From the NCBI GenBank assembly GCA_964650355.1, contig CAZYTL010000001.1, forward strand, positions 4,018 to 68,017: DNA of 64,000 nucleotides. Direction: 5' to 3'. The translations under genes and the position numbers were made by a program. The DNA is from an uncultured Gammaproteobacteria bacterium. Lineage in GTDB: Bacteria > Patescibacteriota > Microgenomatia > CAYXHB01 > CAZYTL01. The notes under the pieces were generated by a model. That model was not told where the DNA came from, did not search any database, and saw only the letters and a program-made list of their open reading frames with translations. Each line of letters begins with the position of its first letter. Position 1 is the first letter of the stretch. Below are positions 33,036 through 54,407 of the stretch, piece after piece.

Positions 33036-33060
33036 GGATTTATTTATGCCTTCAGAGTAC
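33036..33060 (+). repeat. left copy of about 24-bp imperfect direct repeat flanking the RM/SIR2-HerA cassette
   Basis: ggatttatttatgccttcagagtac compared with ggatttacttatgccttcagggttc at 44147..44170. Confidence 0.55.
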
Positions 33061-33173
33061 CGATTTACCAGTCAAATGGCTAGTTGTTTAATGTCACTAT
33101 GTGTAATTACCTAGTTGAAGCTATAAAAAGCTGTTGAAATAAATCGAATTTTTTTATATCCTATTGGTATATA

Positions 33174-33386
33174 TTGTTAAGTAAATTTATCAACAGTAAT
33201 ACTATGGAAGAACTTCTAACGATAGGCGAAGCCGCTCAGATTTTGAAGGTTCATCCCAACACTTTACGTTTGTGGGATAAAAACGGCATCTTGAAAGCTG
33301 TGAGAATTGGTGTGAAAAAAACTCGCAGATACAGAAAAGAGGATATCGAGAAGTTTATTAAAGAAGGTAAAAATAATAAGGAATAA
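33174..33386 (+). CDS. excisionase/MerR-like HTH DNA-binding protein
   Basis: LTIGEAAQILKVHPNTLRLWDKNGILKAVRIG is the MerR/excisionase-family HTH. The likely start is the ATG at 33204 (MEELLTIGEA...). It is a paralogue of ORF 48019..48213. Confidence 0.6.
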   Translation: MLSKFINSNTMEELLTIGEAAQILKVHPNTLRLWDKNGILKAVRIGVKKTRRYRKEDIEKFIKEGKNNKE

Positions 33387-33391
33387 AAACT

Positions 33392-35614
33392 ATGACTCAA
33401 GCTCAAAAACAGCAACTAGAAAAACAACTTTGGGCAGTTGCCAATGTTCTTCGAGGCAAGATGAATGCTGACGAATACAAGAACTATATCTTGGGGTTTA
33501 TTTTTTACAAATATCTTTCAGAAAAACTTGCTCGATACATAGATGAGAAACTATTATCCAACGAGAAGTTTGATTTTTCCGAAATTGATGAATCTAGCAA
33601 AGATGGTCAAAAAATCATTGATGCTGTCAAGAAAGCCTGTATTGATCACTTAGGATTTTTCCTTAAACCTAAGGACCTTTTCTCTTATCTCGTAAAGAAA
33701 GGTAATGGAGAAATTAAGAGTCAAAGCACCTTTATCCTAGAAAACCTTAAAGACGTTCTTAACTCCATTGAACAAACTTCTATGGGAACAGCTAGTGAAG
33801 ATGATTTCAAAGGACTTTTTGACGACGTGGACTTAACTTCATCCAAATTAGGTAAATCGGAAAACAAGAAAAATCAAGTAATTGTGGAAGTATTGACACT
33901 ACTTGGCGCTATTGATTTTAAGCTAGAAGATTCTAAAAGTGATTTACTTGGTGATGCTTATGAATACTTGATCGGAGAATTCGCAGCCGGAGCGGGTAAA
34001 AAAGGTGGAGAGTTCTACACTCCAGCCCAAGTTTCTAGATTGCTTTCTAAGATAGTGATTCGCGGCAAGAAAAAAATTAAATCTGTTTACGATCCTACTT
34101 GTGGATCAGGCTCTCTTCTACTTCGCATAGGCGAGTATGTAGATGTAAAGGCTTATTATGGGCAAGAACTAAACCCTACAACCTACAACTTAGCTCGAAT
34201 GAACATGATCTTGCATGGAGTCCACTTTGATGATTTCAGTATTCGCCAAGGAGATACATTAACCGACGACATGCACTTAGATTTAAAGGCAGAAGCAGTT
34301 GTTGCTAATCCTCCCTTCTCAGCTGACTGGAAGGGTGATAAAGACCCAGCTTTGGTGCACGATGAGAGATATTCTCAATACGGAAGATTGGCTCCAAAAA
34401 GCAAAGCAGATTATGCTTTTGTTACGCACATGCTACATCATTTATCTGATAACGGAATAATGGCTGTGGTTTTACCTCATGGTGCGCTATTCAGGAGTGG
34501 AGCTGAAGAACAGATTCGTAAATATATAATCGAAAAACAGAATTACCTTGATGCGGTAATAGGTTTGCCACCAAATATTTTTTATGGAACAAAGAAACCT
34601 TTTGCAATATTAGTATTTAAAAAATGTAGAAGCGAAGATCAAGACATATTTTTTATTGATGGTTCAAACGAGTATGTTGTTGGAGAAAAAAAGAACCTGA
34701 TGACAGATCAAAACATTAATAAAATATTTAACATATATGAAAATCGCCAAGAAATCGATGAATTTTCTTATAGAGCAAAATTATCTGAGGTAAAGAAAAA
34801 TAATTTTGACCTTTATATTTCTCGATATGTAAAAATAATTGAAAAAGAACAAGAAATCTCAATCGCTGAGGTTGCAAAAAAACTGTATAGACTTCAAGAG
34901 CTAGAACAACCCCATCAAGAAAGAGTTAAAAAATATTGCGATAAATTAGGATGTCCGCCTCCAATTGGATCTAATACTCAACTTCTTACCGATTATAAGC
35001 GTGGTTTAATTCAGAAGCTTTTTTCAAGAGAAATTAGGTTTAGAGATAAAAAACAGAAAGATTTTCCAGATTGGACAATCTATAAACTCGAGAATGTTTT
35101 ACACGAACATGGAAAAAAAAGTACCGGAAAAGAAAAAGTGTACTCTGTTTCTGTGCATAAAGGTTTGGTTGACCAGATTGAACATCTTGGAAGAAGTTAT
35201 GCAGCTAAATCAACAAGCCACTACAATTTAGTAAAACCAGGAGATGTTGTATACACAAAAAGTCCAACTGGTGATTTCCCTCTAGGAATTATAAAACAAA
35301 GCAAAATTAGTAAGACAGTCATAGTCTCTCCGCTTTACGGAGTATTTACCCCCAAAACATTTGATTTGGGATTTATTCTAGATGCCTATTTTGAATCAAC
35401 TGCCAATACGAACAACTACCTATCACCCATTGTTCATAAAGGTGCAAAAAACACCATTGCAATTACTAACAGCACTTTTTTGTCTGGCGAACTATCACTG
35501 CCTGTTTCTGAAGAAGAAATACAAATAGTTGCAGACTTTATAAGGTCTATTGACCAGATAATTCTCTTAAAGAGCGGATCTTTTTCGCAAAATGTCAAAA
35601 GTCACGAAGTTTAA
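33392..35614 (+). CDS. hsdM: Type I restriction-modification HsdM methyltransferase fused to a single-TRD HsdS specificity module
   Basis: HsdM motifs: SAM-binding VYDPTCGSGSLLL and catalytic VVANPPFS (NPPF). The C-terminal ~250 aa has HsdS features: conserved boundary DFPDWTIYKLENV, one target-recognition domain, and the terminal LPVSEEEIQIVADFIRSIDQII repeat. Confidence 0.75.
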   Translation: MTQAQKQQLEKQLWAVANVLRGKMNADEYKNYILGFIFYKYLSEKLARYIDEKLLSNEKFDFSEIDESSKDGQKIIDAVKKACIDHLGFFLKPKDLFSYLVKKGNGEIKSQSTFILENLKDVLNSIEQTSMGTASEDDFKGLFDDVDLTSSKLGKSENKKNQVIVEVLTLLGAIDFKLEDSKSDLLGDAYEYLIGEFAAGAGKKGGEFYTPAQVSRLLSKIVIRGKKKIKSVYDPTCGSGSLLLRIGEYVDVKAYYGQELNPTTYNLARMNMILHGVHFDDFSIRQGDTLTDDMHLDLKAEAVVANPPFSADWKGDKDPALVHDERYSQYGRLAPKSKADYAFVTHMLHHLSDNGIMAVVLPHGALFRSGAEEQIRKYIIEKQNYLDAVIGLPPNIFYGTKKPFAILVFKKCRSEDQDIFFIDGSNEYVVGEKKNLMTDQNINKIFNIYENRQEIDEFSYRAKLSEVKKNNFDLYISRYVKIIEKEQEISIAEVAKKLYRLQELEQPHQERVKKYCDKLGCPPPIGSNTQLLTDYKRGLIQKLFSREIRFRDKKQKDFPDWTIYKLENVLHEHGKKSTGKEKVYSVSVHKGLVDQIEHLGRSYAAKSTSHYNLVKPGDVVYTKSPTGDFPLGIIKQSKISKTVIVSPLYGVFTPKTFDLGFILDAYFESTANTNNYLSPIVHKGAKNTIAITNSTFLSGELSLPVSEEEIQIVADFIRSIDQIILLKSGSFSQNVKSHEV

Positions 35615-35620
35615 ATACAT

Positions 35621-38416
35621 ATGGCACAATCAGAACTACAACTAGAAAACGAATTAATATCTCAACTTAATACATTAGGTTTTGATATTGTTTCTATTCC
35701 CAACGTTGATTCGCTTCATCAGAATTTACAATCTCAACTTGAAAAATTCAATCAAACTAAATTCTCTGATCTTGAATTCTCTCGAATTTTAAACTACTTA
35801 ACTAAGAGTGATCGTTTTCAAAAAGCAAAAACTTTGCGAGATAGATTTGCCCTAAAGCGCGATGATGAAAGCACTTTGTGGGTACGCTTTTTCAACATGG
35901 ATAAGTGGTGTAAGAACGAATATCAAGTTACACATCAGGTTACCCAAGCCGGAAGATATGAGAATCGTTACGACGTAACTTTGCTTATTAACGGTTTGCC
36001 ATTGGTTCAGATTGAACTCAAACGTCGTGGTGTTGAAATGAAAGAAGCGTTTAATCAAATTCAACGCTATCATCGTCATTCTTTCACAGGGACCCTGTTT
36101 GAATATATTCAAGTATTTGTAATTTCTAATGGCGTTAACACTAAATACTTTTCGAATAATCCTAGACAATCATTTGAACAAACATTTTTTTGGACAGATG
36201 TAAACAATAAAAAAATAACTCAACTTAATGAGTTTGCTGATGTGTTTTTAGAAAAATGCTCTTTGTCAGCAATGATCGCTGAATATATTGTTCTTCATGA
36301 ATCACTTAAGATTCCAATGATCTTACGTCCCTATCAGTATTTTGCAGTTAAAGCTATTGAACAACGAGTAAAAGAATCAGATAAAAATGGTTACATTTGG
36401 CACACCACTGGATCTGGAAAAACTTTAACCTCATATAAGGCGAGCCAGATTCTCTCTCAGCTACCGGAAATTAAGAAGGTTTTATTCGTTGTTGATCGAA
36501 AAGATTTAGACATTCAGACCACCAAAGAATTTAATTACTTCTCTGATGGCTCAGTAGATGGTACCGATAACACACGAAATTTAGTTGCTCAACTTAAAGA
36601 TCCAAATCGAAAACTCATAGTTACTACCATTCAAAAACTAGATAGGGCTGTTTCGAGAGAATCATATATTCATCAATTTGAAGCTCTCCAAAATGAAAAA
36701 CTGGTCATTATTTTTGATGAATGTCACCGAAGTCAATTTGGATTAACACATTCAAGAATTAAAGGTGCTTTAAAAAATGCTCAGTTGTTTGGTTTCACTG
36801 GTACGCCAATCTTTGCAGACAACAATGTCGGTGGTGTAACTACCAAAGATGTGTTTGGCGAGTGTCTGCACAAGTACATTATCACTCATGCCATTGATGA
36901 TAATAATGTGCTCGGTTTTGCAGTTGAGTATGTTGGTAAATATAAGAAAAAAGATCAAGATACTTTGGACGCAGATATTTTTGCTGAAACTTTAGTAGAA
37001 GGTATTAATACCAAAGAAGTTCTTGAAAGCGATGAGCGTCTAGAAAAAATTACTGAGTACATTCTTCAAGATTGGAAACGAAAAACTAAAAAAGGTAAAT
37101 TCAACGCAATTTTTGCCACAAGCAATATTAGTGTTTTGAAAAGATACTACAAGTTGTTTGCTGACCAAAAACCTGACGATTTCAAAGTAGCGACAATATT
37201 TACTTATCAAGCCAATGAAGATGATAGCTCCGACATGCTTGACGTTGATATTTTTGCTGGTGAAGGTACTACCGGTAACCAACATTCTAGAGATTTCTTA
37301 GAGTCATGCATAAAAGATTACAACACTCTCTATGGAACAAATTATTCAACTGACCGCTTCTACGACTATTATCGAGATTTACAAAAACGAATTAAAGAAA
37401 AGCAAGTTGATTTAGTTATTGTGGTGAACATGTTCCTAACAGGTTTTGATAGTCCGAGACTCAATACCTTGTTCGTAGATAAAAACCTAAGATATCACGG
37501 TCTAATCCAAGCGTACTCACGTACTAACCGTCTACTTAATTCAGACAAACCACATGGGAATATTGTTTCCTTTAGGAATCTAAAACTAGCCACTGATAAA
37601 GCATTAGCATTGTTTGGTGATGAGAACGCTAAAGAAGTTGTTTTCAAAAAACCGTATGAGATTCAGAAAAAAGAATTTGAACAAAAATTATCAGAAGTAA
37701 AGAAAAAGGTTCCTACTGTAGATTCAGTTGATGATTTGCAGGGAGAAGAAGAAAAGGCTTCATTTGTTAAAAGCTTTAGAGATCTTTTGAGAATTAAATC
37801 CTCTCTAGAAACTTTTGCTGAATTTTCATTTGATGACTTAGGTATATCTGAGCAAGAATTTTATGATTACCAAAGCAAATATCTCGACATTCATGAAGAG
37901 CGCAAAAAACACGATCCTGAAAAGGAATCTATATTAGATCAAATCGACTTTGAGCTTGAACTTACAGTAAGAGATGTTGTTGATTTTGACTATATTATTC
38001 AACTTATTGCTGGGTTGAAAGACATTAGCTCAGATGCTGTTAGAGAAAAGAAGACTGAAGAAATCTTGAAGCTATTTGACCGTGATGTAAAACTTCGCAA
38101 GAAGAAAGAGCTAATCAAGAAATTTATTGAAGAAAATCTTCCCAAGGTTGGTAAAGATGGAAACGTCGAAGAAGCCTTTGAGAAATTCTGGTCAAGTGAA
38201 AGATCTACTGCTTTAAAAGATGTGGCTCAGACTGAAAATATTCCTCTAGAAAAATTTGAACAAGTTATTGGTGAGTACTTGTATACCCAAAAACTTCCAC
38301 ATAGTCAGGACATTATTGATCTACTCCCAGAAGCTCCCAAGATCTTAGAGCGTCAAGGAATCATCGATAGGATTAAAAATGCAATTGAAAATATAGTGGA
38401 TATTTTTGAATGGTAA
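35621..38416 (+). CDS. hsdR: Type I restriction enzyme HsdR (endonuclease/helicase subunit)
   Basis: N-terminal PD-(D/E)xK (DVTLLINGLPLVQIELK), helicase motif I HTTGSGKT, and motif II IIFDECHRS (DECH box). Confidence 0.8.
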   Translation: MAQSELQLENELISQLNTLGFDIVSIPNVDSLHQNLQSQLEKFNQTKFSDLEFSRILNYLTKSDRFQKAKTLRDRFALKRDDESTLWVRFFNMDKWCKNEYQVTHQVTQAGRYENRYDVTLLINGLPLVQIELKRRGVEMKEAFNQIQRYHRHSFTGTLFEYIQVFVISNGVNTKYFSNNPRQSFEQTFFWTDVNNKKITQLNEFADVFLEKCSLSAMIAEYIVLHESLKIPMILRPYQYFAVKAIEQRVKESDKNGYIWHTTGSGKTLTSYKASQILSQLPEIKKVLFVVDRKDLDIQTTKEFNYFSDGSVDGTDNTRNLVAQLKDPNRKLIVTTIQKLDRAVSRESYIHQFEALQNEKLVIIFDECHRSQFGLTHSRIKGALKNAQLFGFTGTPIFADNNVGGVTTKDVFGECLHKYIITHAIDDNNVLGFAVEYVGKYKKKDQDTLDADIFAETLVEGINTKEVLESDERLEKITEYILQDWKRKTKKGKFNAIFATSNISVLKRYYKLFADQKPDDFKVATIFTYQANEDDSSDMLDVDIFAGEGTTGNQHSRDFLESCIKDYNTLYGTNYSTDRFYDYYRDLQKRIKEKQVDLVIVVNMFLTGFDSPRLNTLFVDKNLRYHGLIQAYSRTNRLLNSDKPHGNIVSFRNLKLATDKALALFGDENAKEVVFKKPYEIQKKEFEQKLSEVKKKVPTVDSVDDLQGEEEKASFVKSFRDLLRIKSSLETFAEFSFDDLGISEQEFYDYQSKYLDIHEERKKHDPEKESILDQIDFELELTVRDVVDFDYIIQLIAGLKDISSDAVREKKTEEILKLFDRDVKLRKKKELIKKFIEENLPKVGKDGNVEEAFEKFWSSERSTALKDVAQTENIPLEKFEQVIGEYLYTQKLPHSQDIIDLLPEAPKILERQGIIDRIKNAIENIVDIFEW

Positions 38417-39602
38417 GAAAAATTTTATGAAAATTATAGACGATAAATCATTAGAAGAACTTAAAAATATAGTTCAAGATTGTAATGTAAACTTTTTACT
38501 TGGTTCAGGCATGTCCATGCCCTATCTTTCTACTCTTGGGAAAATTGAACAATTTTTAACAGAACTTGCACAAAAAAAAGAAAAAGGAGAAGTAACAAAC
38601 GAACAAGAAAAGATTATTAGAGTATCTTTGTATAAAAAATTTTTTGATGGCGCAATAGTAAAGAATTTAGATGTTCTAAAAGAAAGTGTTGATGCTAAGA
38701 AGGTATTGGATAACTACGAGAATTTTTTAGTAATTCTTAATTCTATTTTACTTAATAGAAAAAGCAGCATCCTAAATAAACAATTAAATATCTTTACAAC
38801 AAATGTAGATATTTTTTTAGAAAAATCACTGGAAAATACAAACGTAGAATATAACGATGGGTTTAGTGGAAGATTTTCTCCGAAATTTAATTTAACCAAT
38901 TTTAAAAAGTCGTTTTATAAAACTAGTCTTCATTATGACAATGTTTCAGAGCTACCAGTGTTTAATTTAATGAAAATTCACGGCTCACTGACTTGGGATA
39001 AAAGAGAGAAAGAAGATATTTTGTTCTCATCCAAACTAAATATTGTCGATAAAATTAAATCTAAAACAATAACTGGAAATACACTTATTGATATTGATGA
39101 TGAAGAAACAATAGATGAACTTATTACCAAAGCCAATACTAAGACCCCAGATTCGTCAGTAGATGAATTTATAGTTGAATACGAAAAGCTTGCGATTGTA
39201 AATCCGACAAAAGAAAAATTCAGAGAAACTGTTTTAAACAGAAATTATTATGAATTACTCAGGATTTATTCAAATGAACTTGAAAAAGAAAACACAATTC
39301 TTATTGTTGCTGGATTTTCATTCGCTGATGAACATATTCGAGATGTAACAATAAGAGCCGCCAATTCAAATCCAACTTTAAAAATCTATATACTTTCCCA
39401 TTCAAGTGATGCCGACGAAGGATCATTAATAGTCAAAGATAAGTCGATAAACGGCAATGTTGAGATTGTTGTACCACCGCAAAAGCAAGATGATCCTGAA
39501 CAAGAACCAGTAGATGAGTTCAAATATAACTTAAAAAACATAAATGAAAAAATCTTTACAGAATTACTTAAAAAGATTGGTGAGAGAAAAGAAGATAAAT
39601 AA
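38406..39602 (+). CDS. SIR2-family (NAD-dependent deacetylase-fold) defence protein
   Basis: FLLGSGMS (GxGxS Rossmann loop of SIR2), TTNVD (TTNYD-like) and KIHGS (HG catalytic His). The start overlaps the hsdR stop. An alternative start is at 38427. Confidence 0.7.
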   Translation: MNGKKNFMKIIDDKSLEELKNIVQDCNVNFLLGSGMSMPYLSTLGKIEQFLTELAQKKEKGEVTNEQEKIIRVSLYKKFFDGAIVKNLDVLKESVDAKKVLDNYENFLVILNSILLNRKSSILNKQLNIFTTNVDIFLEKSLENTNVEYNDGFSGRFSPKFNLTNFKKSFYKTSLHYDNVSELPVFNLMKIHGSLTWDKREKEDILFSSKLNIVDKIKSKTITGNTLIDIDDEETIDELITKANTKTPDSSVDEFIVEYEKLAIVNPTKEKFRETVLNRNYYELLRIYSNELEKENTILIVAGFSFADEHIRDVTIRAANSNPTLKIYILSHSSDADEGSLIVKDKSINGNVEIVVPPQKQDDPEQEPVDEFKYNLKNINEKIFTELLKKIGERKEDK

Positions 39603-39611
39603 TCCTAAAAC

Positions 39612-41471
39612 ATGAATAGCAAGCAAATACTCAAAGATTCTATATTCAAAGTTGGTAAGGTCATATCAGTTGATGGGCGAATTGTTAGAATAAAGGTTGA
39701 TAAAACAAAGAACTCTTCGAACTTACTATATAATGGCAAGTTGCTTAAAAATATTTCTGTAGGTGGGTATGTAAAAATAATCAAAGGTTTCACAAAGATA
39801 ATTGGCAAGGTCGATGGAGAATATATTAATGAAGAAAAAACCTTTTCAAATAAGGAATATGCAAGCGGAAAAGAAAAAATCAGCCGCGTGCTTAATGTTA
39901 GTTTGTTAGGTTTTTTTGGGGATAAAGGTTTTGAGAGAGGCATAAAAGAATTGCCTTTAATAGACAATGAGTGTTTTTTGCTTGAAAATGAAGAGTTTGG
40001 TTCAGTTCACCATTTTGTTAAAAAAGATGATGAGCCAATAACCGTAGGAAGTCTTTCTTTAGAAAAAGGTCAAGAAATCAAAGTTGGAGTTAATAGTTTG
40101 TTTGCGAGCCATATAGGAATTTTTGGGAATACTGGTAGCGGAAAATCATATACGTTAGCAAAAATTTATAGGGAATTATTTAAAAAGTATGAAGGGAGAG
40201 AAAATTTTCGGAACAATGGTATGTTTCTCTTGTTTGATTTTAATGGAGAATATGCAGATGAGAAGTGCATAATCGAAGGAAAAAAAATTTACAACCTAAC
40301 CACCAAAAAGACACTTAATACAATTAATAATGACGATAAATTTCCATTAAATGAGAATGACTTAATTGATTTGGAGCTTATTTCTATTCTTGCTAACGCA
40401 ACAGAAAAAACTCAGAGACCATTCTTATCCAGATCGTTAGACTTTTATAAAAAAATAAATGATGCCGATGACTCTCTTGAGTTTTTCAAAAATGTTTTAA
40501 AAAAACGGACAAAAGAAGTTCTAAGGATGGCAGATAAAGATAAAGCGCACGTTCTTATCGATTATTTAATTAATATTTTAGAAAAACCAGAAGAAAACTT
40601 AAACGAAGATCTTTTCGCCGCTATCGAATGGAACAATACAAATCATCACTTCATGCCTAGAAATGGCCAAAGCAGAGAATTAACGGATAGCGAAATTGAA
40701 GGAACAATTTTATATACATCCGCTAATAGCTATCAATTTCCCCAAAATATACTTACAAAAGTCATTCATTTTCTATACTTACAAGTAATTTTTGATATTT
40801 ACAACGACAAGGCTCAAAACGAACATATTGCCCCGGCCATTAATAAATTGAAGAGTAAACAAAAAGATATAGAGAAAGTTTTGAATACTAGCAGTACAAC
40901 CAACGACTTCTTTGTAGATAGCAATTTTGTGGTATTGAATCTTAAAGACGTTAATATCGAAATGAGAAAGACATTGCCTCTACTACTATCCAAAAAGGCT
41001 TATTCAGAACATAAACACAAACATAGACGAGATGAGAAGAAGTATTTAAATATTATTATTGATGAGGCTCACAATATATTATCCAAAGAATCTTTTAGAG
41101 AGGCTGAGAGCTGGAAAGATTATCGACTGGAAACATTTGAAGAGATAATTAAAGAGGGGCGTAAGTTTGGGGTCTTTCTAACAATAGCGAGTCAGCGACC
41201 CCATGATATATCCGCGACTATTATTTCCCAGCTGCACAATTATTTCCTACATAGATTGATAAATAATCACGACATTGTGGCTGTAGAAAGAACTATTGCT
41301 TATCTTGATAAATTGTCTGTTGAGTATTTATCTATTTTACCTACTGGTACATGTGTATTAGCAGGTTTGCTTGCACAGGTTCCTGTAGTTATTGATATTG
41401 GCAAAATAGAACCCAAAGAGCACGAACCTAACAATAAAACTATCAACTTAATAGAAAGTTGGAGTGACTGA
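39612..41471 (+). CDS. herA: HerA-like hexameric ATPase/helicase
   Basis: Walker A GIFGNTGSGKSYT, Walker B LNIIIDEAHN, FLTIASQRP, and an N-terminal HAS-barrel-like region. It sits immediately after the SIR2 gene. Confidence 0.75.
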   Translation: MNSKQILKDSIFKVGKVISVDGRIVRIKVDKTKNSSNLLYNGKLLKNISVGGYVKIIKGFTKIIGKVDGEYINEEKTFSNKEYASGKEKISRVLNVSLLGFFGDKGFERGIKELPLIDNECFLLENEEFGSVHHFVKKDDEPITVGSLSLEKGQEIKVGVNSLFASHIGIFGNTGSGKSYTLAKIYRELFKKYEGRENFRNNGMFLLFDFNGEYADEKCIIEGKKIYNLTTKKTLNTINNDDKFPLNENDLIDLELISILANATEKTQRPFLSRSLDFYKKINDADDSLEFFKNVLKKRTKEVLRMADKDKAHVLIDYLINILEKPEENLNEDLFAAIEWNNTNHHFMPRNGQSRELTDSEIEGTILYTSANSYQFPQNILTKVIHFLYLQVIFDIYNDKAQNEHIAPAINKLKSKQKDIEKVLNTSSTTNDFFVDSNFVVLNLKDVNIEMRKTLPLLLSKKAYSEHKHKHRRDEKKYLNIIIDEAHNILSKESFREAESWKDYRLETFEEIIKEGRKFGVFLTIASQRPHDISATIISQLHNYFLHRLINNHDIVAVERTIAYLDKLSVEYLSILPTGTCVLAGLLAQVPVVIDIGKIEPKEHEPNNKTINLIESWSD

Positions 41472-46564: not shown

Positions 46565-46570
46565 ATATTG

Positions 46571-47284: not shown

Positions 47285-47287
47285 AAA

Positions 47288-48022
47288 TTATTTCTTTATA
47301 TAATTTTGTTTATACTTTTTTTGAATTTCTTTTAGACGATACGGCTCGAATCTAGAAAGGTAATCAATAACTAAGGCTACGTGATGCTTAGCATTATTTT
47401 CTACATGGTGATACATCCAAGTTTCGTCATTCAATTTGCCAGAAATTGTGTTGAGTATTTTCTCTATTGTTTTAAATAACTCTTTAACTTCAGCAGCACT
47501 AATACTAGGCAATTTTGGTTTTCTAACGTCGTCGTGAACAAGCCACTTGTCTCGATAGGTTTTCGCTTTTTTGATAGCTTTGTTTTGTTTTTCAAGCATT
47601 TTTCTTATTAAAGCTAGATCTGAATATTGCAAACCTTTGTACCTCTCTGTTAGTTCTTTTAAGAGTTGACGATCTTGATTGTATTCAGTGAAAGCATCAA
47701 TTGTTAAGTGTTTTAGTTTGCTCTCCGTGAAGTTAACAATTTTGTTGATATGCAGTGACTGATCTGATACATCTAGGAGCTTTCCCAATTCAAGGAAAAA
47801 GTAAGTGCGGAGCGCTTCCTGAGTAGGAACAAAAAAATTCCTATATTTATCCATGGTTTTTACATTTGCTTTTGCGCGTGATGGTCCAACAACGTTTGGA
47901 GCTGCAGCTTCCTTCATTCCTTCGTAAGCGTAAAAAGCAGATAGGGCGTGGAAATATCTACTTTGCAACTTCTTGATGTAGGACATTAGGGTTTTGAATT
48001 CTGTATTTTTTGGTTTGGTCAT
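47288..48022 (-). CDS. hypothetical alpha-helical protein with Rx5H (HEPN-like) motif
   Basis: 244 aa. YRDKWLVHDD gives R-x5-H in an all-alpha context, resembling HEPN/AbiU2-type proteins. Confidence 0.4.
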   Translation of the reverse strand: MTKPKNTEFKTLMSYIKKLQSRYFHALSAFYAYEGMKEAAAPNVVGPSRAKANVKTMDKYRNFFVPTQEALRTYFFLELGKLLDVSDQSLHINKIVNFTESKLKHLTIDAFTEYNQDRQLLKELTERYKGLQYSDLALIRKMLEKQNKAIKKAKTYRDKWLVHDDVRKPKLPSISAAEVKELFKTIEKILNTISGKLNDETWMYHHVENNAKHHVALVIDYLSRFEPYRLKEIQKKYKQNYIKK

Positions 48023-48213
48023 GTATTTTTCGTTTTGATAAATTGATCGATAGATTTTGGATCATATCTTCTATCCCCGCGCTCGTTTACTTTAATTGCT
48101 TTTAGTTTTCCGCTCTTATCCCATCGCCTAAGGGTCTCGACATGAACATTCAAAACTTCCGCCGCTTGGCGAATATTTAGTAGTTTCGGTAATGCAATGT
48201 TTTTCTTCGACAT
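48019..48213 (-). CDS. excisionase/MerR-like HTH DNA-binding protein (paralogue of 33174..33386)
   Basis: LLNIRQAAEVLNVHVETLRRWDKSGKLKAIKV. It overlaps the start of the downstream gene by 4 nt. Confidence 0.6.
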   Translation of the reverse strand: MSKKNIALPKLLNIRQAAEVLNVHVETLRRWDKSGKLKAIKVNERGDRRYDPKSIDQFIKTKNT

Positions 48214-48269
48214 AACTCAACTTAATTATACAAAAATATAGCCTAAGTTGATATACTTGTAATACAACC

Positions 48270-49922
48270 ATGAGTGCAAAAAAAACTAACAATCATGTAC
48301 CATCGCATAGTGACAACGACTTTACAGATAAAGAGTCAGTAAGTCTTATTGAAAATATTTTAGCTCGCCATAAACGAGTCATGCCGAAGCTGTATTCGAG
48401 CGACAAATGGCCAAATATTGATGGCCATATTGAAGTCCAAGACGCTGGCCATACGTTGGTAGGTCGCTCATTTGTGCAGGCCAAAACCCTCCCAGGCGAT
48501 CATAATTTGAAATTTGCTTGCCCGGTCTCGTTCTTTTCAAGTTGTGAGATAGACCCGTGTTTTTTGTTTGGTGTTGATAATCAAAATGGGAGGGTTTATT
48601 GGCTTTACTTCGATGCTAACGTTATAAAGGAAATTGATTTTGATGGGAACACCTCAACAAAAACAATTGAATTTAATGAATCACAATACTTCGATAAGGA
48701 TAAGACTGATTATATTGAGGAGTGGAAAAAAATCATCAGAGATAACCAACAAAAATTTAAGCAGTATAACGAGCTAAAAGAGTCGTACGAGCTTATTCTC
48801 AGTAGTTCCAATAGAGCCATGGGGAAAACTGATAAAAACTTTTCTAAAATTCATTTGTTTCTTGATGAACTAAATAGAGGACTTGATCATCAATTTCAGA
48901 TAGTAAAAGATATTTTTTACCCAAAAACTTGGAAAATAGGGCTTGCGTACTATAACTATGAAGACACAAAGGTTGCCTACATTTCGTTTCCAATCCCAAT
49001 CGATCAGAATGATGTTCAAATAAAAGAGGTTGATGATGATCTACGAGATAAATTGAAGCAGCAAGGCCTTGGGTTTACTGGACACTTTGCTGAAAACCCT
49101 ATTGAGGTTAGGCCAAGAGAATATGCGAAAGAAATTATAGGTTCAAAAGTGACATCTATCTTGGAGAGGCAACTTCTAAACCACAGAGGGCATGAGTTGT
49201 TGGCTCAAGAAACTGTATTCAACTTCATTAATAGTTACCACGACCACTTAGATTTACCTAAAAAAGACTCTTACCCTCTCGAAGAAGTAAAAAGCAGCAA
49301 AGAATTGATGCGGATGAAAAACACTTCCTTATTATCTATAAACGCAAAACACATCAATCTAAGCATTTTTTGGGAACTCTTAAATTTCTTGGAATCAAAA
49401 CAACTTCCAATCAGCAGAGTGTATAAGGCAAAAGATTTTTCAAGAATTCCCAATGGTGGTTGGGTTTGGAATGTTTTCTCAAAACCGGATACAGAACATA
49501 ACCTAAATATTGTCTTTGATAATCTTTCTTCTGCTTACGAACAGATCATCCTCAATAACTTCCCTTTGCTTAAAAAGGATTTTTCTCTCTTTCAGGAAGC
49601 AAACAAAATTCTCGTCCGCTATAAACTTAAAGAAAAATATACAGATTTCGGATCGGGACCAACTTACGAAATGTTCTATCTCAAAGCGGACAACAATGCT
49701 ACACAAAAATCAATTGAAGTAATAGAAGATAGTGAAGCAAACACCCTTAATAAGTTATTTTATTCTGGTGGTCCATATAAATATGAATATAAAGGTGGTC
49801 GATACACCTTACTTTCGGCACAGCATAGCGTTTTAGATTTTATCTACGATGACACTCCGCTATTTAGCTTAGTGTACGAAATACTAGTTCGAAGAGTTAA
49901 TCAATATTTTGAAAAATCATGA
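48270..49922 (+). CDS. hypothetical 550-aa protein, possible N-terminal PD-(D/E)xK-like motif
   Basis: WPNIDGHIEVQD...FVQAKT is a possible D...E.Q...QAK arrangement, which is weak. The remainder has no recognisable domain. Confidence 0.35.
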   Translation: MSAKKTNNHVPSHSDNDFTDKESVSLIENILARHKRVMPKLYSSDKWPNIDGHIEVQDAGHTLVGRSFVQAKTLPGDHNLKFACPVSFFSSCEIDPCFLFGVDNQNGRVYWLYFDANVIKEIDFDGNTSTKTIEFNESQYFDKDKTDYIEEWKKIIRDNQQKFKQYNELKESYELILSSSNRAMGKTDKNFSKIHLFLDELNRGLDHQFQIVKDIFYPKTWKIGLAYYNYEDTKVAYISFPIPIDQNDVQIKEVDDDLRDKLKQQGLGFTGHFAENPIEVRPREYAKEIIGSKVTSILERQLLNHRGHELLAQETVFNFINSYHDHLDLPKKDSYPLEEVKSSKELMRMKNTSLLSINAKHINLSIFWELLNFLESKQLPISRVYKAKDFSRIPNGGWVWNVFSKPDTEHNLNIVFDNLSSAYEQIILNNFPLLKKDFSLFQEANKILVRYKLKEKYTDFGSGPTYEMFYLKADNNATQKSIEVIEDSEANTLNKLFYSGGPYKYEYKGGRYTLLSAQHSVLDFIYDDTPLFSLVYEILVRRVNQYFEKS

Positions 49923-49937
49923 ATAAAACCAGGCAAT

Positions 49938-50501
49938 TTATTCAAAGCTCACACTCGATAATATTTGATCAGTAATTGCCTTATTTTCCTCTGTTGGAGG
50001 ATATGTGGAGAATGACATAAGTTTGTCATCCTTGACTATGATTGTTTGGTATCTGCCCTTAGGACCTGTAACTAGCCCCTCAATGCCCCTGTAGCCGCCC
50101 ACAACGGCTTCCTTGATCGATTCCTTGGACATATCCTTCTTGGCTTGCTCTAGCCCTTCCACAGCCATATTTTTGTTTGGCTGGTAAACCGTATAAAGCT
50201 GATATGTAGGCTTATCCTCTGAACCTGATTCGATATAAAAATTTACGGCGTGTTCAGTAGCCGGATCTTGCCTGAAATTCATATCTTCGGGAACAACTAC
50301 ATAAAGGCTCATTGTTCCGATAAACTTTTCACCCTCTTTGAGCTTTCTGCCAGGAGTCGCTTCCGGCAAAGGAGATGGCTTTACATTTTCCAGAACTATT
50401 GGTGAAGAAGGGACTTTCGTTGAATCTTTACGTGAGTAAATGTAGACCCCACATATAAGGATAACTATTATTGCGATAACTGTAGTTGCACGTATTTTCA
50501 T
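49938..50501 (-). CDS. membrane-anchored/secreted protein
   Basis: N-terminal transmembrane/signal helix (TTVIAIIVILICGVYIY). Confidence 0.4.
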   Translation of the reverse strand: MKIRATTVIAIIVILICGVYIYSRKDSTKVPSSPIVLENVKPSPLPEATPGRKLKEGEKFIGTMSLYVVVPEDMNFRQDPATEHAVNFYIESGSEDKPTYQLYTVYQPNKNMAVEGLEQAKKDMSKESIKEAVVGGYRGIEGLVTGPKGRYQTIIVKDDKLMSFSTYPPTEENKAITDQILSSVSFE

Positions 50502-50503
50502 AA

Positions 50504-51046
50504 TTATTCACTCGGTCGGACTTGTGGTTCGCCCATATAAGGACCGCCAGGCATAAACATATAACCATAATCCGTTTTTACTTCCTGAGGATAGTTAAGG
50601 AGAATCCTGGCTACTTCCCAGGTGGTCATTTTAGTTCCCAAGCCATAAACTCCCCTGTCGATAGTATTTCTTCCAACTTTTATTGCGTTTTCTTCACCAA
50701 GGTTAGTGTCTTCCGAGTTCTCCAGGGCGTATCTTAAAGCCTGCTCATCCCTAACAAATCCATAGTAGTGTAGGTTGCTTACGAGAGCATCCAGTGTCAT
50801 ATTTTCGGTTACATAGAAGCTGGCACCCAATTCTTCTGCATCCTGGGCTTCTTCCGGAGTCATACGAAGTCTCTCAATGAAGTAATCTGCTACCGTTTTG
50901 CCGTCCCAGGTACTTTTATCGACAGCCTGGAATTTTGATTGATCTATTTTGGGCCGGAACATTTGAAAGGAGACTGTTGCTACAATGAGTATTGCCAGTC
51001 CGTATAGTAAGTAATATTTTATTGATTTTTGCCTTGAGTTTTTCAT
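50504..51046 (-). CDS. membrane-anchored protein
   Basis: The ORF track starts it at 51094. The internal ATG at 51046 (MKNSRQKSIKYYLLYGLAILIVA...) gives a typical signal-anchor. Confidence 0.4.
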   Translation of the reverse strand: MKNSRQKSIKYYLLYGLAILIVATVSFQMFRPKIDQSKFQAVDKSTWDGKTVADYFIERLRMTPEEAQDAEELGASFYVTENMTLDALVSNLHYYGFVRDEQALRYALENSEDTNLGEENAIKVGRNTIDRGVYGLGTKMTTWEVARILLNYPQEVKTDYGYMFMPGGPYMGEPQVRPSE

Positions 51047-51182
51047 ATTTACCTGCTTTTCCAACATTATCTCCAGGAAGATAAGGAAAGTCAAATTATT
51101 CTTACTTTACTTACATATTGCCTATAGGAACAGGAAATCTAGCCCCTTTCAGAGCTAGAATTTCCTTGCCTCATCCTTCAGA

Positions 51183-51803
51183 TTAAGGATTGTGGCTACC
51201 TGGACAATAGGCGCTTGATGAGTTTGCTTCATGACAAATTTCGGTATCATCGAAACCAATTTGTCTAGTAGTGCCCTCACAGGTTACGTCAGTCAACCAA
51301 GTGTTCATAATCTGATAGTAGTTGCTTGTTGTAGGCAACGAAATCCATCGATTATAGTAAGCATTTTGATTGATCGTGAAGCTGTAACCGCTTCCGCCGT
51401 TGTAGGTAATCTGATATGGGGCTGCCGTTGTCGTGGCATAGTTACTTGGAACAAAAGTGTACCAGTAGCTCCACTGGGCAATATTACCCATATTCCATCT
51501 CGCATAGTTGCTCAGAGAACAACCTGAGTAGGTCTTCCACATACTGTAGGGAGCCCCGTTGTATGGGGACTGATTTGAGCATTGACCATTCTCACACCAG
51601 TTGTTTGGGTTATGGCACCAGCCATAATCTCCATGCTCCCACCAGTATTGGCCTGGCCCATACCTGTCAAAGTATGCACCGCCAGAACAGACGATCGTTC
51701 TCTCGTTATATGCCGAGACCTGCGGGGTAACTCCAAAGAGAGCAATACCAGCTACCATTGCCAAGCTTAGAAACAATTTTGATAGAACATTTAGTTTTTT
51801 CAT
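51183..51803 (-). CDS. secreted Cys/Trp/Tyr/Asn-rich protein (toxin/bacteriocin/lectin-like)
   Basis: Signal peptide (LFLSLAMVAGIALFGVTPQVSA). The mature part has about 10 Cys and many W/Y/N. Confidence 0.45.
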   Translation of the reverse strand: MKKLNVLSKLFLSLAMVAGIALFGVTPQVSAYNERTIVCSGGAYFDRYGPGQYWWEHGDYGWCHNPNNWCENGQCSNQSPYNGAPYSMWKTYSGCSLSNYARWNMGNIAQWSYWYTFVPSNYATTTAAPYQITYNGGSGYSFTINQNAYYNRWISLPTTSNYYQIMNTWLTDVTCEGTTRQIGFDDTEICHEANSSSAYCPGSHNP

Positions 51804-52582
51804 AGATTGTCAAAAAAGCCTGCGTTGGTATAGCCAATCAATTGCCCACCTTGGGTAAATGCTACCTGCAAGGACTTACCATCTTCTCCGTGCCAGGTAA
51901 AGAAATACGTACCGACTTTTTGACCTCTTTCGAGTTCAAGTTTGTCGAGATCGACACCGAGATCCTGATCGGAAATTACATCCTTAGCCATTTGCTCTAA
52001 CTGAGCAGCGTCATAGCGAGGAGTCATATCCATGAACTCTTTTGGCTCGCCAACTTCTTTTGGACGAATGTAAGCGTCAAGAACTTTTCCAGTGGCAACA
52101 TCAACCTGATACGCATAATCTTGTGAGAAGTAGACCTCAACTCCATCTTTTTTGAAATTCTGGATACCGCCAATCTTGCGGGAATATTGCACTTCCTGCT
52201 TTGGCTGATCCTGAACTTTGTAGAGAAAACGATCATTCCAGTTGTTGATAGCGTTAATCGTTACTGCTCTCTCAGCTTCTGGACGCGCTTCCAGGCCTCT
52301 GATTTCGTTAGAGACATCTTCATGAAGTTTCTTCATCTGCACAGCTGTCTCACCGGCGTAAACTCTTTCACCAAATTCGTTAGTTGTAAATTCACCGTTC
52401 TGTTGAGCATCAGCTATAGCATCCTGAAGTTTTTTGGTCAGTGCTTCTACCTTCGCCTGTACAGGGTCCTGCTGTGCTCCGACTGGTGTCGTCTTTGATG
52501 CAACCACACCAACGAGGGCAAAGACCGCTAATAGGGGAAGAATTGCGAGATACTTTTTGGAAAGTTGATTATGTACCTTCAT
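51800..52582 (-). CDS. secreted protein, paralogous C-terminal domain to the anti-sigma factor
   Basis: Signal peptide. The C-terminal FFTWHGEDGKSLQVAFTQGGQLIGYTN parallels FFTWKGERK...TLTQGGQLVNFTN of ORF 52891..53910. Confidence 0.45.
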   Translation of the reverse strand: MKVHNQLSKKYLAILPLLAVFALVGVVASKTTPVGAQQDPVQAKVEALTKKLQDAIADAQQNGEFTTNEFGERVYAGETAVQMKKLHEDVSNEIRGLEARPEAERAVTINAINNWNDRFLYKVQDQPKQEVQYSRKIGGIQNFKKDGVEVYFSQDYAYQVDVATGKVLDAYIRPKEVGEPKEFMDMTPRYDAAQLEQMAKDVISDQDLGVDLDKLELERGQKVGTYFFTWHGEDGKSLQVAFTQGGQLIGYTNAGFFDNL

Positions 52583-52890
52583 AGCTTTTTATTTTTTTCA
52601 CCTCCTTTCTACCAGCTTTATTTATAAAAAAACCCAGACTACGCTGTTAATCTGAGTTTGCTGAGGAAAAGGAATTGAAAAGCTCTTTTGTGGAGTCTGA
52701 GTGAAGCTAAATTGAGTATGTAGAGTAAGTATATTCTTACTATTCTTACTTTTCATACATCAATAATTACAAATAGTTTTGAGAATGTCAAGCCCTGTTT
52801 ATTAGTGGTGATTTCTGTATCTCTAAAGCTATAAAAATTTCGAAGACGAGAGGAAATACCAGATGGCCTTGTTCAGAAGAGAAGAGTGAA

Positions 52891-53910
52891 TTAATCACCG
52901 AGTTCGTTCGTAAAGTTGACGAGTTGCCCACCCTGAGTTAAAGTAACTGTCAGTTGAGGAGTATAGTATTCTTTTTTCACCGTTATGCACGGTAATCCCT
53001 CCTCAAAGCTATCAGCATCCTCATTTTTTATATCCGCCCGGCAGGTAGTATAAGGATGATCAAGTTTTCGCTGTTTTCGCTCTCCCTTCCAGGTGAAGAA
53101 AAAGTTTAGGTCCTGGTCGTTTTCACCCTTACTACCGGTCTCAAGTGAGAGCTTAGTTAGATCTATTTTACCGATTGCTTTCTGATGATCCTGAATGAAC
53201 TCTCTAACTAAGATTTCAGCTTCAGCCAGGTTGTAACGAGGTGTGTAATCATATTCTTTTTGGGGACTAAACCAATGAGAACCATCTTTATTTTTACCCC
53301 AGTTGCCTTCTTTGGGAGACATTTCAACTACAAGATTTGTTTCTGTATCGATAATAAACCGGTCAAAATCCACGAGATAACTTTCAACTCTTATATGTTC
53401 TTCATCGTTGTCATTGGGATTTCTAATGCACTCATAAGTGACGTTAGCATCCGGCCTGTCGAGAAACTCTCTGACAGCCGCCACAGACTTCTCTTGTTCC
53501 TCAGCCGGTCTCGCGCTTACTGAACACCATTCTTGTTGAGCCTGTTTGTATTTCTGGCTATTTTTATCCCTGTAGTCAGGATCATTTGTAAGTAGTGATG
53601 TAAGCTCCTCTTGTAATTGATTTCTAAGACTTATGAGTGCATCAATAATTGATCCCTTGGCTGAAACGGGAGACTTTGTACTCAAAAAACCAACAAATAA
53701 GATTACCAAAGCTATGGATGCGAAAGCCAAAGGCAATCGAAATGACCAAAATGGATTTGGGGGAGGAGAGAATGTTTTGTTCAGATTTTCTTCAAGTTGC
53801 TTTTCTTCCCTAATTCTTTCGAGAATCTGTCTTTCCAAAACACTAATGTGCTTGAACTCTTTTTTACTCTCTTTGAGAAAATATGATCTAATAATGTTTT
53901 TTAGTTTCAT
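52891..53910 (-). CDS. anti-sigma factor-like single-pass membrane protein
   Basis: Cytoplasmic N-terminus, one transmembrane helix (LAFASIALVILFVGFL), and an extracytoplasmic domain. Its start overlaps the stop of the ECF sigma gene by 4 nt. Confidence 0.5.
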   Translation of the reverse strand: MKLKNIIRSYFLKESKKEFKHISVLERQILERIREEKQLEENLNKTFSPPPNPFWSFRLPLAFASIALVILFVGFLSTKSPVSAKGSIIDALISLRNQLQEELTSLLTNDPDYRDKNSQKYKQAQQEWCSVSARPAEEQEKSVAAVREFLDRPDANVTYECIRNPNDNDEEHIRVESYLVDFDRFIIDTETNLVVEMSPKEGNWGKNKDGSHWFSPQKEYDYTPRYNLAEAEILVREFIQDHQKAIGKIDLTKLSLETGSKGENDQDLNFFFTWKGERKQRKLDHPYTTCRADIKNEDADSFEEGLPCITVKKEYYTPQLTVTLTQGGQLVNFTNELGD

Positions 53911-54407
53911 ATCAGTGATTCTTTCAATTTGACGACTGCTCTATAAAAACGCATTTTCACTGCTGGCTCTTTAGAGTCGAGAGCGGTGGCAATATCGCAA
54001 AACTGCATCTCCTCATTAACCCTAAGCCTGATTATTTCCTGTTCAACCGGCTTTAGTTTTTTGAGTGCTGCCGTAACTTTTTTAATATCTTCCTCTTGAG
54101 TAATTTTGGCCTCTAGTAAGACTTCCACATCGCTGTCATCAAATAGTTGAATATTGTTTTGCTCAATTGAAAGATGATGCTTATTTGCTCTAAACATATC
54201 TGTAATTACATGTCTGCAGATGGTAAGTAACCAGCTCTTGAGCTGTCCTTCACTTTTAAATTTGAAATTGTCGTATGCTTTCATAGCTTTTAAAAATGTT
54301 TCCTGGACAGCGTCATCAACGTCGTCCTGTTGGGACAAGGACTTTTTAGCAAAAAAATATACTAATCTTATGTAGTCCCGGACTACATCTTCAAAAGGTG
54401 GTTTCAT
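53907..54407 (-). CDS. ECF-type sigma-70 family sigma factor
   Basis: Region 2 (AVQETFLKAMKAYDNF) and a region-4 HTH (EEMQFCDIATALDSKEPAVKMRFYRAV). Confidence 0.65.
   Translation of the reverse strand: MKPPFEDVVRDYIRLVYFFAKKSLSQQDDVDDAVQETFLKAMKAYDNFKFKSEGQLKSWLLTICRHVITDMFRANKHHLSIEQNNIQLFDDSDVEVLLEAKITQEEDIKKVTAALKKLKPVEQEIIRLRVNEEMQFCDIATALDSKEPAVKMRFYRAVVKLKESLI

Follow-up and report, generated by a model that had tools for sequence, protein, structure and literature searches.

An exchangeable island of putative defence genes between the terminase and portal genes of a Patescibacteria prophage

Introduction

Among described systems, the hotspots of the temperate Escherichia coli phages P2 and P4 are the closest to the locus considered here. 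In P2, the hotspot is situated directly upstream of the portal gene gpQ, with gpA on its other side and cos nearby, and the exchange of hotspot contents in P2 and P4 has been proposed to proceed by recombination without a dedicated recombinase, with DNA ends as the proposed drivers (PMC9122126). The present study concerns a 64,000-nucleotide stretch of metagenomic DNA (contig CAZYTL010000001.1 of assembly GCA_964650355.1, positions 4,018 to 68,017; hereafter, the window), in which the genes of the small and large terminase subunits (TerS and TerL) are separated from the portal gene by some 22 kb. It is highly probable that the window represents a single temperate phage residing in the genome of a member of the Patescibacteria (Candidate Phyla Radiation, CPR), and that the interval consists of a lineage-fixed module, headed by the gene of an extracytoplasmic function (ECF) sigma factor, and of an exchangeable defence island, both placed between TerL and portal.

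As in P2 and P4, the island occupies a fixed locus between core genes of a temperate phage, at which close relatives carry many alternative anti-phage systems, and, as in P2, it abuts the region upstream of the portal gene. Unlike P2 and P4, the window phage has a host among Patescibacteria and not E. coli; the upstream flank is the terminase-linked sigma module, while that of P2 is a replication gene; the site possesses a conserved hairpin and a conserved leader gene encoding a Mad1-like helix-turn-helix (HTH) protein; and the islands of the family are larger (up to ~24 kb) and contain multiple systems. Adjacency to a cos site has been demonstrated for P2/P4.

Morons are accessory genes that have their own promoters and a deviant GC content, are situated between conserved late genes and are thought to benefit the lysogen; classical morons comprise one or two genes. 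The island is likewise accessory, deviates in GC content and is located between conserved late genes, but with its 16.5 kb it combines at least four modules of several genes each.

Genomes of CPR/Patescibacteria have been reported to contain few defence systems per genome at a high defence density, with prophages as the main mobile elements (PMC12259885), and surveys have described CPR prophages and an enrichment of defence genes on CPR mobile elements (PMC12455944, PMC12259885). Literature searches found no description of this prophage family or of this site. The locus adds to the established class of P2/P4-like prophage defence hotspots and overturns no concept.

Conservation and variability of the terminase–portal interval

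A first-pass annotation, made from the letters of the window, had reported about 22 kb between the terminase genes and the portal gene, which are normally adjacent in tailed phages. ORF listing and family searches confirmed that the separation is real, and the named genes were found at or near the positions given for them. The anchors of the interval and the spacer next to TerL are the following:

56733-57335, minus strand: TerS (phrog_6299, 1.6e-8)
55208-56764, minus strand: TerL (phrog_675, 1e-91; Pfam GpA_ATPase)
54408-55207, minus strand: short, variable spacer that holds three small ORFs (52, 60 and 73 amino acids; 54520-55224, the last overlapping the end of TerL; Logan gene calls)
31060-32949, minus strand: portal protein of 629 amino acids, the conserved downstream anchor (Pfam SU10_portal, 3.6e-10; phrog_332, phrog_1216)

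The TTG start of the portal gene at 32967 proved to be an artefact of ORF extension; the Logan gene call and the alignment with relatives place the start at the ATG at 32949, so the gap spans 32950-55207 and measures 22.26 kb.

Cultured phages allowed no comparison of synteny, because the best TerL matches among them, in Vibrio and Staphylococcus phages, were only ~25% identical and the portal gene had no useful match. Relatives were collected by scans of IMG/VR, GTDB genomes and JGI metagenomes with the TerL and portal proteins, which gave about 100 loci (designated by L numbers), and all proteins of the window were mapped onto these loci by tblastn. TerL is 55-95% identical at the amino acid level in more than 50 related loci, so that TerS/TerL form a conserved upstream anchor, and the identity of the portal protein is 57-98%. 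More than 30 relatives retain the same backbone order, namely lysogeny switch, methyltransferases (MTases), TerS, TerL, sigma module, portal, head (capsid) and tail.

Within this constant order, the distance between TerL and portal is highly variable. The adjacency taken as the norm for tailed phages also holds within the family, since the two genes are 339 nt (0.34 kb) apart in the distant relatives L013/L014, whose TerL is 55% identical; elsewhere the distance is 3.4-5.2 kb (several loci), 8.6 kb (L027), 16.4-18.5 kb (several loci), 21.1 kb (L001/L018) or 28.4 kb (L002/L019). The TerL-to-sigma spacing contributes 0.3 to 1.6 kb among relatives. In eight distinct contigs (L008/L032/L076, L009/L077, L010, L038, L039/L080, L075, L094 and L096) the site is empty, the last gene of the sigma module being followed by the portal gene after 136-154 nt. 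The site is occupied by 2-24 kb in about 30 further contigs, with the genes arranged in at least 13 ways. Annotation of the relatives' cargo with PADLOC distinguished, among others, the following arrangements, where RM stands for restriction–modification, REase for restriction endonuclease and TM for transmembrane segment:

HTH, Snf2 and Type IIG RM, followed by GajA, a Ppl-like protein or an Aga-like REase
HTH and Type III Mod/Res
HTH and HsdM/S/R with Gabija, in two versions
HTH and GajA alone (3.0 kb)
Type III RM with the 4-TM and 550-amino-acid proteins described below for the window
HEPN_LA2681 with a 1420-amino-acid protein
DISARM DrmA/DrmB, including L072 inside a 416.7-kb contig
nine unknown genes (L074)

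GajA/GajB occurred in the relatives' cargo in three size classes, and Cas4-like nucleases were also matched by PADLOC; AbiU2 and LA2681 HEPN domains were found with Pfam. The 265 cargo ORFs of at least 100 amino acids fell into 150 clusters at 60% identity.

The closest relative (L001 together with L018) illustrates the turnover. Its TerL is 95%, its portal protein 98%, its trypsin-like protein 99% and its DUF2779 protein 93% identical to those of the window, but the identity drops to 48% in the flanking core gene, and a 10-kb stretch beside its portal gene shares nothing with the window; HTH, Snf2 helicase, Type IIG RM and GajA genes are found there instead of the RM and SIR2-HerA genes. The edges of the variable part are sharp. 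On the left, blastn homology extends from the portal gene across the intergenic region and into the HTH leader, ending at 33318 (L018) or 33361 (L019); on the right, homology to L001/L002 ends exactly with the flank gene's stop codon, at 49938/49939. Distant relatives that lack the sigma module still hold accessory genes at the TerL–portal junction, for example a YceG/MltG-like gene in L027 and L029 and, in L027, also genes for a C5-MTase, the endonuclease R.HinP1I and a Dam methylase; gene acquisition at the junction has therefore gone on for as long as the family has existed.

The attributes of a prophage hotspot were thus found together: the same locus between conserved core genes, high turnover among close relatives and enrichment in known anti-phage systems. 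Of the explanations offered by the first-pass annotation, a cargo hotspot is supported for 33.4-49.9 kb, where the site is fixed and the content varies among relatives. The treatment of the whole interval as cargo was only partly correct: 33387-49937 (16.55 kb) is variable, whereas 49938-54407 is conserved backbone of the lineage, and the ECF sigma/putative anti-sigma pair and the secreted proteins, which had been counted as cargo, belong to a conserved module that abuts the portal gene in the eight empty-site contigs. Related complete phages carrying the same interval had been named in advance as evidence against the finding. Relatives do have an interval at the same site, but its contents differ, which supports the hotspot reading and does not refute the finding.

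Gene content and modular composition of the island

The island proper comprises 33387-49937. Its GC content is 35.0% (30.9% in SIR2-HerA and 34.7% in the Type I RM genes) compared with 41-42% in the backbone, a foreign composition. The genes are as follows:

33392-35614, plus strand: HsdM fused to a half-HsdS with a single target recognition domain (N6_Mtase, 8e-102, and HsdM_N; PADLOC Specificity_I, 5e-33, residues 530-727)
35621-38416, plus strand: HsdR (REase_I, 6e-297)
38427-39602, plus strand: SIR2 (PADLOC PDLC04080, 3e-66)
39612-41471, plus strand: HerA (PADLOC PDLC04097, 1e-182)
41471-42985, plus strand: DUF2779/Cas4-like nuclease (Pfam DUF2779, 2e-38)
43022-44113, plus strand: signal-anchored trypsin-like protease (Pfam Trypsin_2, 1e-26)
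44186-46564, minus strand: 792-amino-acid protein with a 4-TM N-terminus and an alpha-solenoid body (TM analysis; all-helical repeat in the AlphaFold 2 (AF2) model, pLDDT 82)
46571-47284, minus strand: 237-amino-acid protein without annotation
47288-48022, minus strand: HEPN AbiU2 (Pfam HEPN_AbiU2, 9e-14)
48019-48213, minus strand: Mad1-like HTH_17 protein, encoded by the first gene of the minus-strand operon (Pfam HTH_17, 8e-11; PADLOC mad1, 1e-12)
48270-49922, plus strand: 550-amino-acid protein with an N-terminal DREN/DUF4365 PD-(D/E)xK nuclease fold (homologues with PF14280; AF2)

Two known systems can be recognised. HsdM, HsdS and HsdR of a Type I RM system are encoded together, and the genes for SIR2 and a HerA-type ATPase are adjacent, with 9 nt between them. 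Both components of SIR2-HerA and all three Hsd components (HsdS half-size and fused) are present, as in the known systems, but in the window the two systems are chained in one HTH-led operon and are followed by the DUF2779 nuclease, the start of which overlaps the stop of HerA at 41471. The leader HTH protein matches mad1 of the MADS system over its full length (5e-14), and HsdM and HerA match mad2 and mad8, respectively; unlike in MADS, the matches of the latter two to Type I MTase (5e-155) and SIR2-associated HerA (1e-182) are far stronger. No match to mad3-mad7 was detected among the island proteins scanned against PADLOC. MADS membership, considered as a candidate assignment, presupposes the full mad1-mad8 set, of which only mad1-, mad2- and mad8-like matches were found, and because of the far stronger Type I MTase and HerA matches and the lack of matches to mad3-mad7 the island was not classified as MADS.

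Searches of the 792-, 237- and 550-amino-acid proteins against Pfam, NCBIfam, PADLOC and PDB sequences gave no or negligible matches. In the AF2 model of the 550-amino-acid protein (pLDDT 84), the N-terminal ~145 residues match the SPARDA nuclease subunit 9qcc_A (E 5e-4, match probability 1.0), and the protein is plausibly, judging from the model, a stand-alone nuclease effector. The family of the 792-amino-acid protein, which has no Pfam match, was found only in CPR-labelled or unlabelled metagenome records and appears, from these records, to be confined to CPR; its AF2 model matched only generic alpha-solenoid folds. Scans of the island for sigma-70 promoters and terminators gave counts at or below shuffle expectation and were uninformative.

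Comparison with the relatives divides the island into four parts. Module A (33392-41471; Type I RM and SIR2-HerA) is common to no sampled member of the family. Module B (41475-44112; DUF2779 nuclease and protease) is 92-95% identical at the nucleotide level to L001/L048, while the adjacent core gene is only 43-48% identical at the amino acid level. Module C (44186-48213), with the 792-amino-acid gene within the AbiU2 operon, is ~70% identical to its counterpart in L020. Module D (48270-49922) shows 79% nucleotide and 87% amino acid identity to L003/L020 and is missing from most relatives. On these identities, the island is a set of at least four independently circulating modules with separate histories.

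A related operon was observed in a different Patescibacteria element. At L105:5169-11827 (also in L106 and L107), a tight five-gene operon of HTH_17, SIR2, HerA, DUF2779 and DREN(DUF4365) genes adjoins a serine recombinase gene; L105 is a 380-kb Patescibacteria contig from Hainich groundwater. Identities to the window proteins are 72% for HTH_17, 56% for SIR2, 54% for HerA, 49% for DUF2779 and 43% for the DREN protein, and the window island has the order and strand of the L105 operon once the Type I RM genes, the protease gene and the inverted AbiU2 operon are removed. From this alignment of gene orders the window island looks nested, with the Type I RM, protease and AbiU2 operon as later insertions, and the HTH-SIR2-HerA-DUF2779-DREN set may be an extended variant of SIR2-HerA. 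The DREN protein was considered as an obligate partner of SIR2-HerA and rejected as such, because its homologues also occur alone in other contexts.

A second recurrent combination joins a PD-(D/E)xK nuclease (Cas4-like or DUF2779) to a signal-anchored trypsin-like protease; it was seen at the portal-distal end of many islands, whatever system lay upstream (window 41471-44113; L006:18078-20122; L035:9294-11338; L068). The pair may represent a two-gene module or, alternatively, an anchor for recombination.

The sigma module

The DNA between the island and the TerL spacer encodes six proteins:

53907-54407, minus strand: ECF sigma factor, 166 amino acids (Sigma70_r2 and Sigma70_r4)
52891-53910, minus strand: anti-sigma-like single-pass membrane protein (TM analysis: one TM at residues 59-77)
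51800-52582, minus strand: signal/TM-anchored protein of 260 amino acids (TM analysis, N-terminal segment)
51183-51803, minus strand: signal/TM-anchored protein (TM analysis, N-terminal segment)
50504-51094, minus strand: signal/TM-anchored protein with a weak YceG-like match (TM analysis, N-terminal segment)
49938-50501, minus strand: signal/TM-anchored protein, the flank gene of the island (TM analysis, N-terminal segment)

The order of the module is the same in all relatives checked with a TerL identity of ~72% or more, and its GC content (41.1%) is backbone-like; by conservation and composition, the 4.5-kb block at 49.9-54.4 kb is an old, conserved, lineage-fixed module and not cargo. The gene of the anti-sigma-like protein follows the ECF sigma gene with an overlap of 4 nt; neither Pfam nor NCBIfam revealed an anti-sigma domain in its product, and searches of Pfam, NCBIfam, PADLOC and PDB sequences gave no or negligible matches for the exported and membrane proteins of the module. 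The module would control late or envelope-related functions of the phage.

The exported proteins of the module (49938-53910) were observed to be strongly divergent alleles, with amino acid identities of 28-59% to L001/L048, in which TerL is 94-95% identical, and of 64-94% to L002; such divergence within a conserved module implies, as far as alignments can tell, recombination or fast evolution. The anti-sigma-like protein and the 260-amino-acid exported protein are paralogues (23-31% identity).

Sigma factors are also encoded by phages of the phiEco32/7-11/SU10 group (PMC8948821, PMC12276001, PMC4281155). The window phage resembles this group in its SU10-type portal and capsid and in having its own sigma-70-family (ECF-like) factor; unlike in that group, the factor is paired with a membrane anti-sigma-like protein and exported proteins, the phage is temperate and its host belongs to CPR. 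No similarity was found by tblastn (E <= 1e-3) between the ECF sigma factor of the window and the sigma factors of the phiEco32 group. Twelve weak tblastn matches to phages (23.5-34.5% identity) came from uncultured faecal 'Bacteriophage sp.' records and two Rhizobium phages. TAACGAAYYTA, a candidate ECF-type promoter/regulator motif present upstream of the portal gene, is not enriched (6 matches, with 5.2 expected).

The portal-proximal edge

Two elements, a leader gene and a non-coding block, lie between the island and the portal gene:

33204-33386, plus strand: Mad1-like HTH_17/MerR leader gene, 60 amino acids (Pfam HTH_17, 4e-13; PADLOC mad1 over the full length, 5e-14)
32950-33110, minus strand: conserved non-coding block directly before the portal ATG, present whether the site is empty or occupied

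The leader gene is transcribed divergently from the portal gene. Its product has 60-62 amino acids across relatives and is 78-96% identical in HTH-led occupied sites with otherwise unrelated cargo (e.g., L018, L019, L021-L024, L031, L055-L060, L062, L065, L066, L068 and L069). No leader gene was found in the empty sites, nor was it detected in the occupied sites of L020/L063/L064, L067/L070/L093, L072/L095 and L074.

A stretch of about 130 nt that separates the leader gene from the portal ATG is conserved. It includes a terminator-like hairpin at 32972-33019 (48 nt) with a T-run on the portal strand, for which a minimum free energy of -26 kcal/mol (z = -4.0) was calculated; compensatory changes affect 5 of its 20 predicted pairs. 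An Rfam scan of 32-56 kb, the non-coding block included, matched no family. By inspection of the alignment, the block is conserved at least as well as the adjoining coding sequence and carries the motif GCCTAACGAATC. Judging from these features, it could be a terminator/attenuator, a promoter leader or a packaging site. Match positions lent no support to a cos site: among the related contigs compared, none ends at the conserved block.

Prophage state, host and assembly

An ImmR/ImmA-type lysogeny switch at 62.0-63.4 kb, in which an HTH_3 gene faces an HTH_19 gene and an ImmA-like Peptidase_M78 gene is also present, indicates a temperate phage. Within 62037-63992 the order is a Cro-like HTH_3 gene (minus strand) facing a CI-like HTH_19 gene (plus strand), an ImmA/IrrE Peptidase_M78 gene and then the gene of a DUF3800 protein; several IMG/VR contigs come to an end at a point ~2 kb beyond the end of the window. 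The SU10-type capsid gene, tail and lysis genes and an amidase gene are present, all backbone ORFs compared with relatives are of full length, and between 64 kb and ~11 kb the gene order is collinear with that of the relatives. A degraded prophage, which had been offered as a possible explanation of the interval, is not supported by these observations.

The backbone also contains orphan MTase genes at 57338-58597 and 59429-60526, coding for a ParB-N domain fused to an N6/N4 MTase and for a C5 MTase, which are kept in relatives; the products may protect the phage itself against RM systems.

TerL relatives were located inside contigs of 0.38-1.13 Mb and in one complete Woesebacteria chromosome of 901,682 bp, and the proteins of the window are recorded on an NCBI contig of 295,193 bp. 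All matches in the genome collection are metagenome-assembled genomes (MAGs), the named lineages including Gottesman-, Davies-, Woese-, Shapiro- and Nomurabacteria, Parcubacteria and Saccharibacteria. The records of L035, L036, L042, L045, L048, L050 and L051 are titled 'Pseudomonadales' or 'Gammaproteobacteria', one of them bearing the isolate name 'HK-STAS-PATE-15', while all other hosts are Patescibacteria; these titles are probably taxonomic mislabels.

Logan contigs assembled independently from SRR14802573, two in number, agree with the window at 0 mismatches. Contig _12565 covers 24,231-47,260, from the portal gene through the HTH leader and the RM genes to the 792-amino-acid gene, and contig _7504 extends from 47,242 to beyond 60,501, from AbiU2 through the 550-amino-acid gene and the sigma module to TerL and TerS. 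The 33-kb, 49.9-kb and 54-55-kb regions are thus spanned, which removes the suspicion, raised by the first-pass annotation, of a chimeric join at 33 or 54 kb.

Proposed organisation and weighing of the evidence

The sequences establish which genes are present, that their positions are conserved, that the site is either empty or occupied, where the breakpoints fall, that identities are mosaic and that the assembly is continuous; on this basis, a model can be outlined of when the island would be expressed, how it would act in defence, what the HTH proteins would do and by which route it would recombine. On one side, the hotspot ends at the stop codon (49938) of the last gene of the sigma module; on the other, it is delimited by the conserved leader region upstream of the portal gene, which consists of the Mad1-like HTH_17 gene, a divergent promoter region and the terminator-like hairpin. 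The site would act as an operon boundary, at which a terminator/leader element before the portal operon would make insertions tolerable. Transcription of the island would start at promoters of its own and run mostly antisense to the late operon, from which the hairpin would insulate it. Its regulators are probably the small HTH proteins, and it is probably active in the lysogen; the leader protein would be a shared regulator of whichever operon follows. The island would protect the host and the prophage against other phages. Its content would turn over by homologous recombination between related prophages through the conserved flanks and shared internal modules, with no dedicated recombinase needed.

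Several points weigh against this reading. The putative defence function of the island is deduced from homology, and the recombination route from sequence patterns; the 792-amino-acid protein, the 237-amino-acid protein and the C-terminal part of the 550-amino-acid protein have no functional assignment. The host assignment relies on the titles of MAG records, some of which are labelled Pseudomonadales or Gammaproteobacteria. Within the clade, the TerL–portal spacing varies by at least 24 kb, which is large for a fixed packaging size of the capsid, and some heavily loaded prophages, possibly including that of the window, might no longer package efficiently. Finally, the Logan graph breaks at 47,242-47,260 (a 19-nt overlap in the gene of the 237-amino-acid protein), and the internal join at this point relies on the source assembly only; an exact-protein look-up of the product of this gene, which spans the break, found it not on record. 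The break suggests a branch of the graph, possibly with a strain-level alternative cargo in the sample.

Alternative explanations

Of the rival readings, the one that keeps most of its force, though improbable, sees the cargo as serving the lytic programme of the phage or counter-defence, such as degradation of host DNA or exclusion during lytic growth, rather than immunity of the lysogen. The island does lie within the late-gene region, RM-like and nuclease genes that serve in taking over the host are known from phages, and the orphan MTases of the backbone could protect the DNA of the phage. Most of the island genes, however, are antisense to the late operon and organised in their own HTH-led operons, the element is temperate, and complete systems of the abortive-infection type (SIR2-HerA, AbiU2, and Gabija in relatives) would be self-defeating if they fired in the phage's own lytic cycle; the pattern matches that of prophage hotspots (PMC9122126).

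Somewhat less probable still is the suggestion that two phage remnants have been juxtaposed or that the prophage has decayed, an option also listed by the first-pass annotation. A separation of this kind is unusual for a lambdoid-type gene order, and the accessory load is heavy (16.5 kb, with ~9 kb more downstream of portal), but the conserved order in more than 30 relatives and the eight contigs with nothing between the sigma module and the portal gene contradict a juxtaposition: the empty-site relatives (L008, L038, L039 and others) have a continuous block of TerS, TerL, sigma module, portal and capsid genes. Both sides co-vary with the same relatives, TerL at 95% and portal at 98% identity being found on one contig, and the full-length collinear genes, the lysogeny switch, the SU10-type capsid and portal and the amidase argue against decay.

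That the island is a self-mobile element (a transposon, an integrative element, a phage satellite or an integron-like cassette array) inserted into the prophage is very unlikely. The HTH_17 family includes excisionase-like proteins, the ends of the island are discrete, and the related operon of L105 lies beside a serine recombinase gene in another element; yet Pfam, NCBIfam and PADLOC revealed no integrase, transposase or relaxase among the island proteins, the HTH leader side is common to unrelated cargo while the far side ends at the stop codon of a core gene, and it is single modules, not the whole island, that are shared with relatives. Two particular forms were considered and rejected: an integrative mobile element or transposon, as there is no recombinase domain in the island and no direct repeats flank 33.4/49.9 kb, and an integron or cassette array, as there is no integron integrase and no repeated hairpin, recurrent inverted repeat or attC-like site at the module junctions.

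An assembly chimera joining two phages or strains at ~33 kb or ~54 kb, for which the metagenomic source, the sharp GC drop inside the interval and the Logan break might speak, is the least credible of all, since the outer junctions (33, 49.9 and 54-55 kb) were assembled independently without mismatches, dozens of contigs from unrelated samples show the same backbone order with cargo at the same site, and the sole unsupported join (47.25 kb) falls inside the cargo, in a tightly packed operon, leaving the finding unchanged either way.

Beyond the reading of the locus as a lineage-fixed sigma module and an exchangeable defence island, a tentative extension can be put forward, namely that the conserved Mad1-like HTH leader and the structured non-coding element by the portal gene constitute a 'docking platform' of CPR prophages for defence cassettes. 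In this extension, the non-coding element may, by analogy with P2/P4, be a packaging (cos) site.

Other variable features of the window

A second variable region was observed at 22000-31059, directly downstream of the portal gene, so that the portal gene is flanked by variable DNA on both sides. This region encodes a protein with tetratricopeptide repeats (TPR) and HEPN_LA2681 (29201-30763), vWA and AAA_5 proteins and a diversity-generating retroelement. In L025, L027, L029, L041 and L042, the portal gene is followed directly by a homologue of 21453-21851, and in L067/L070/L093 the HEPN_LA2681 gene is located upstream of the portal gene instead. The retroelement (22659-26632) is complete, with a reverse transcriptase at 22659-23696, a template repeat at 24108-24229 and a variable repeat at 24702-24823; all mismatches between the two repeats (18/18) are at adenines of the template repeat. 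The variable repeat lies in the C-terminus of a 647-amino-acid AAA_5 (MoxR-like) protein, which adjoins a vWA/CobT_C protein (27066-29162).

At the tail/lysis end, a SAM-dependent methyltransferase and an ORF with a MazE-like antitoxin domain are encoded (1143-1874 and 2661-2957), and distant homologues of this methyltransferase are present in the variable region downstream of portal in L022/L024.

Significance

For annotation, the locus advises caution: a large gap between terminase and portal genes is no evidence of chimerism or of prophage decay. The flank gene and the portal leader can serve as anchors for mining new defence genes in an uncultivated phylum. If the docking-platform proposal is true, the platform would concentrate uncharacterised CPR-specific defence genes, such as those of the 4-TM alpha-solenoid protein, the DREN-fusion protein, the Cas4-like/DUF2779 nuclease and protease pair, the 1420-amino-acid protein and the nine-gene set of L074, and through it ultra-small bacteria would outsource much of their immunity and exchange it rapidly. 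In CPR/Patescibacteria, with genomes of ~1 Mb, the locus provides an alignable example in which 0 to ~24 kb of interchangeable putative immunity genes occupy one site.

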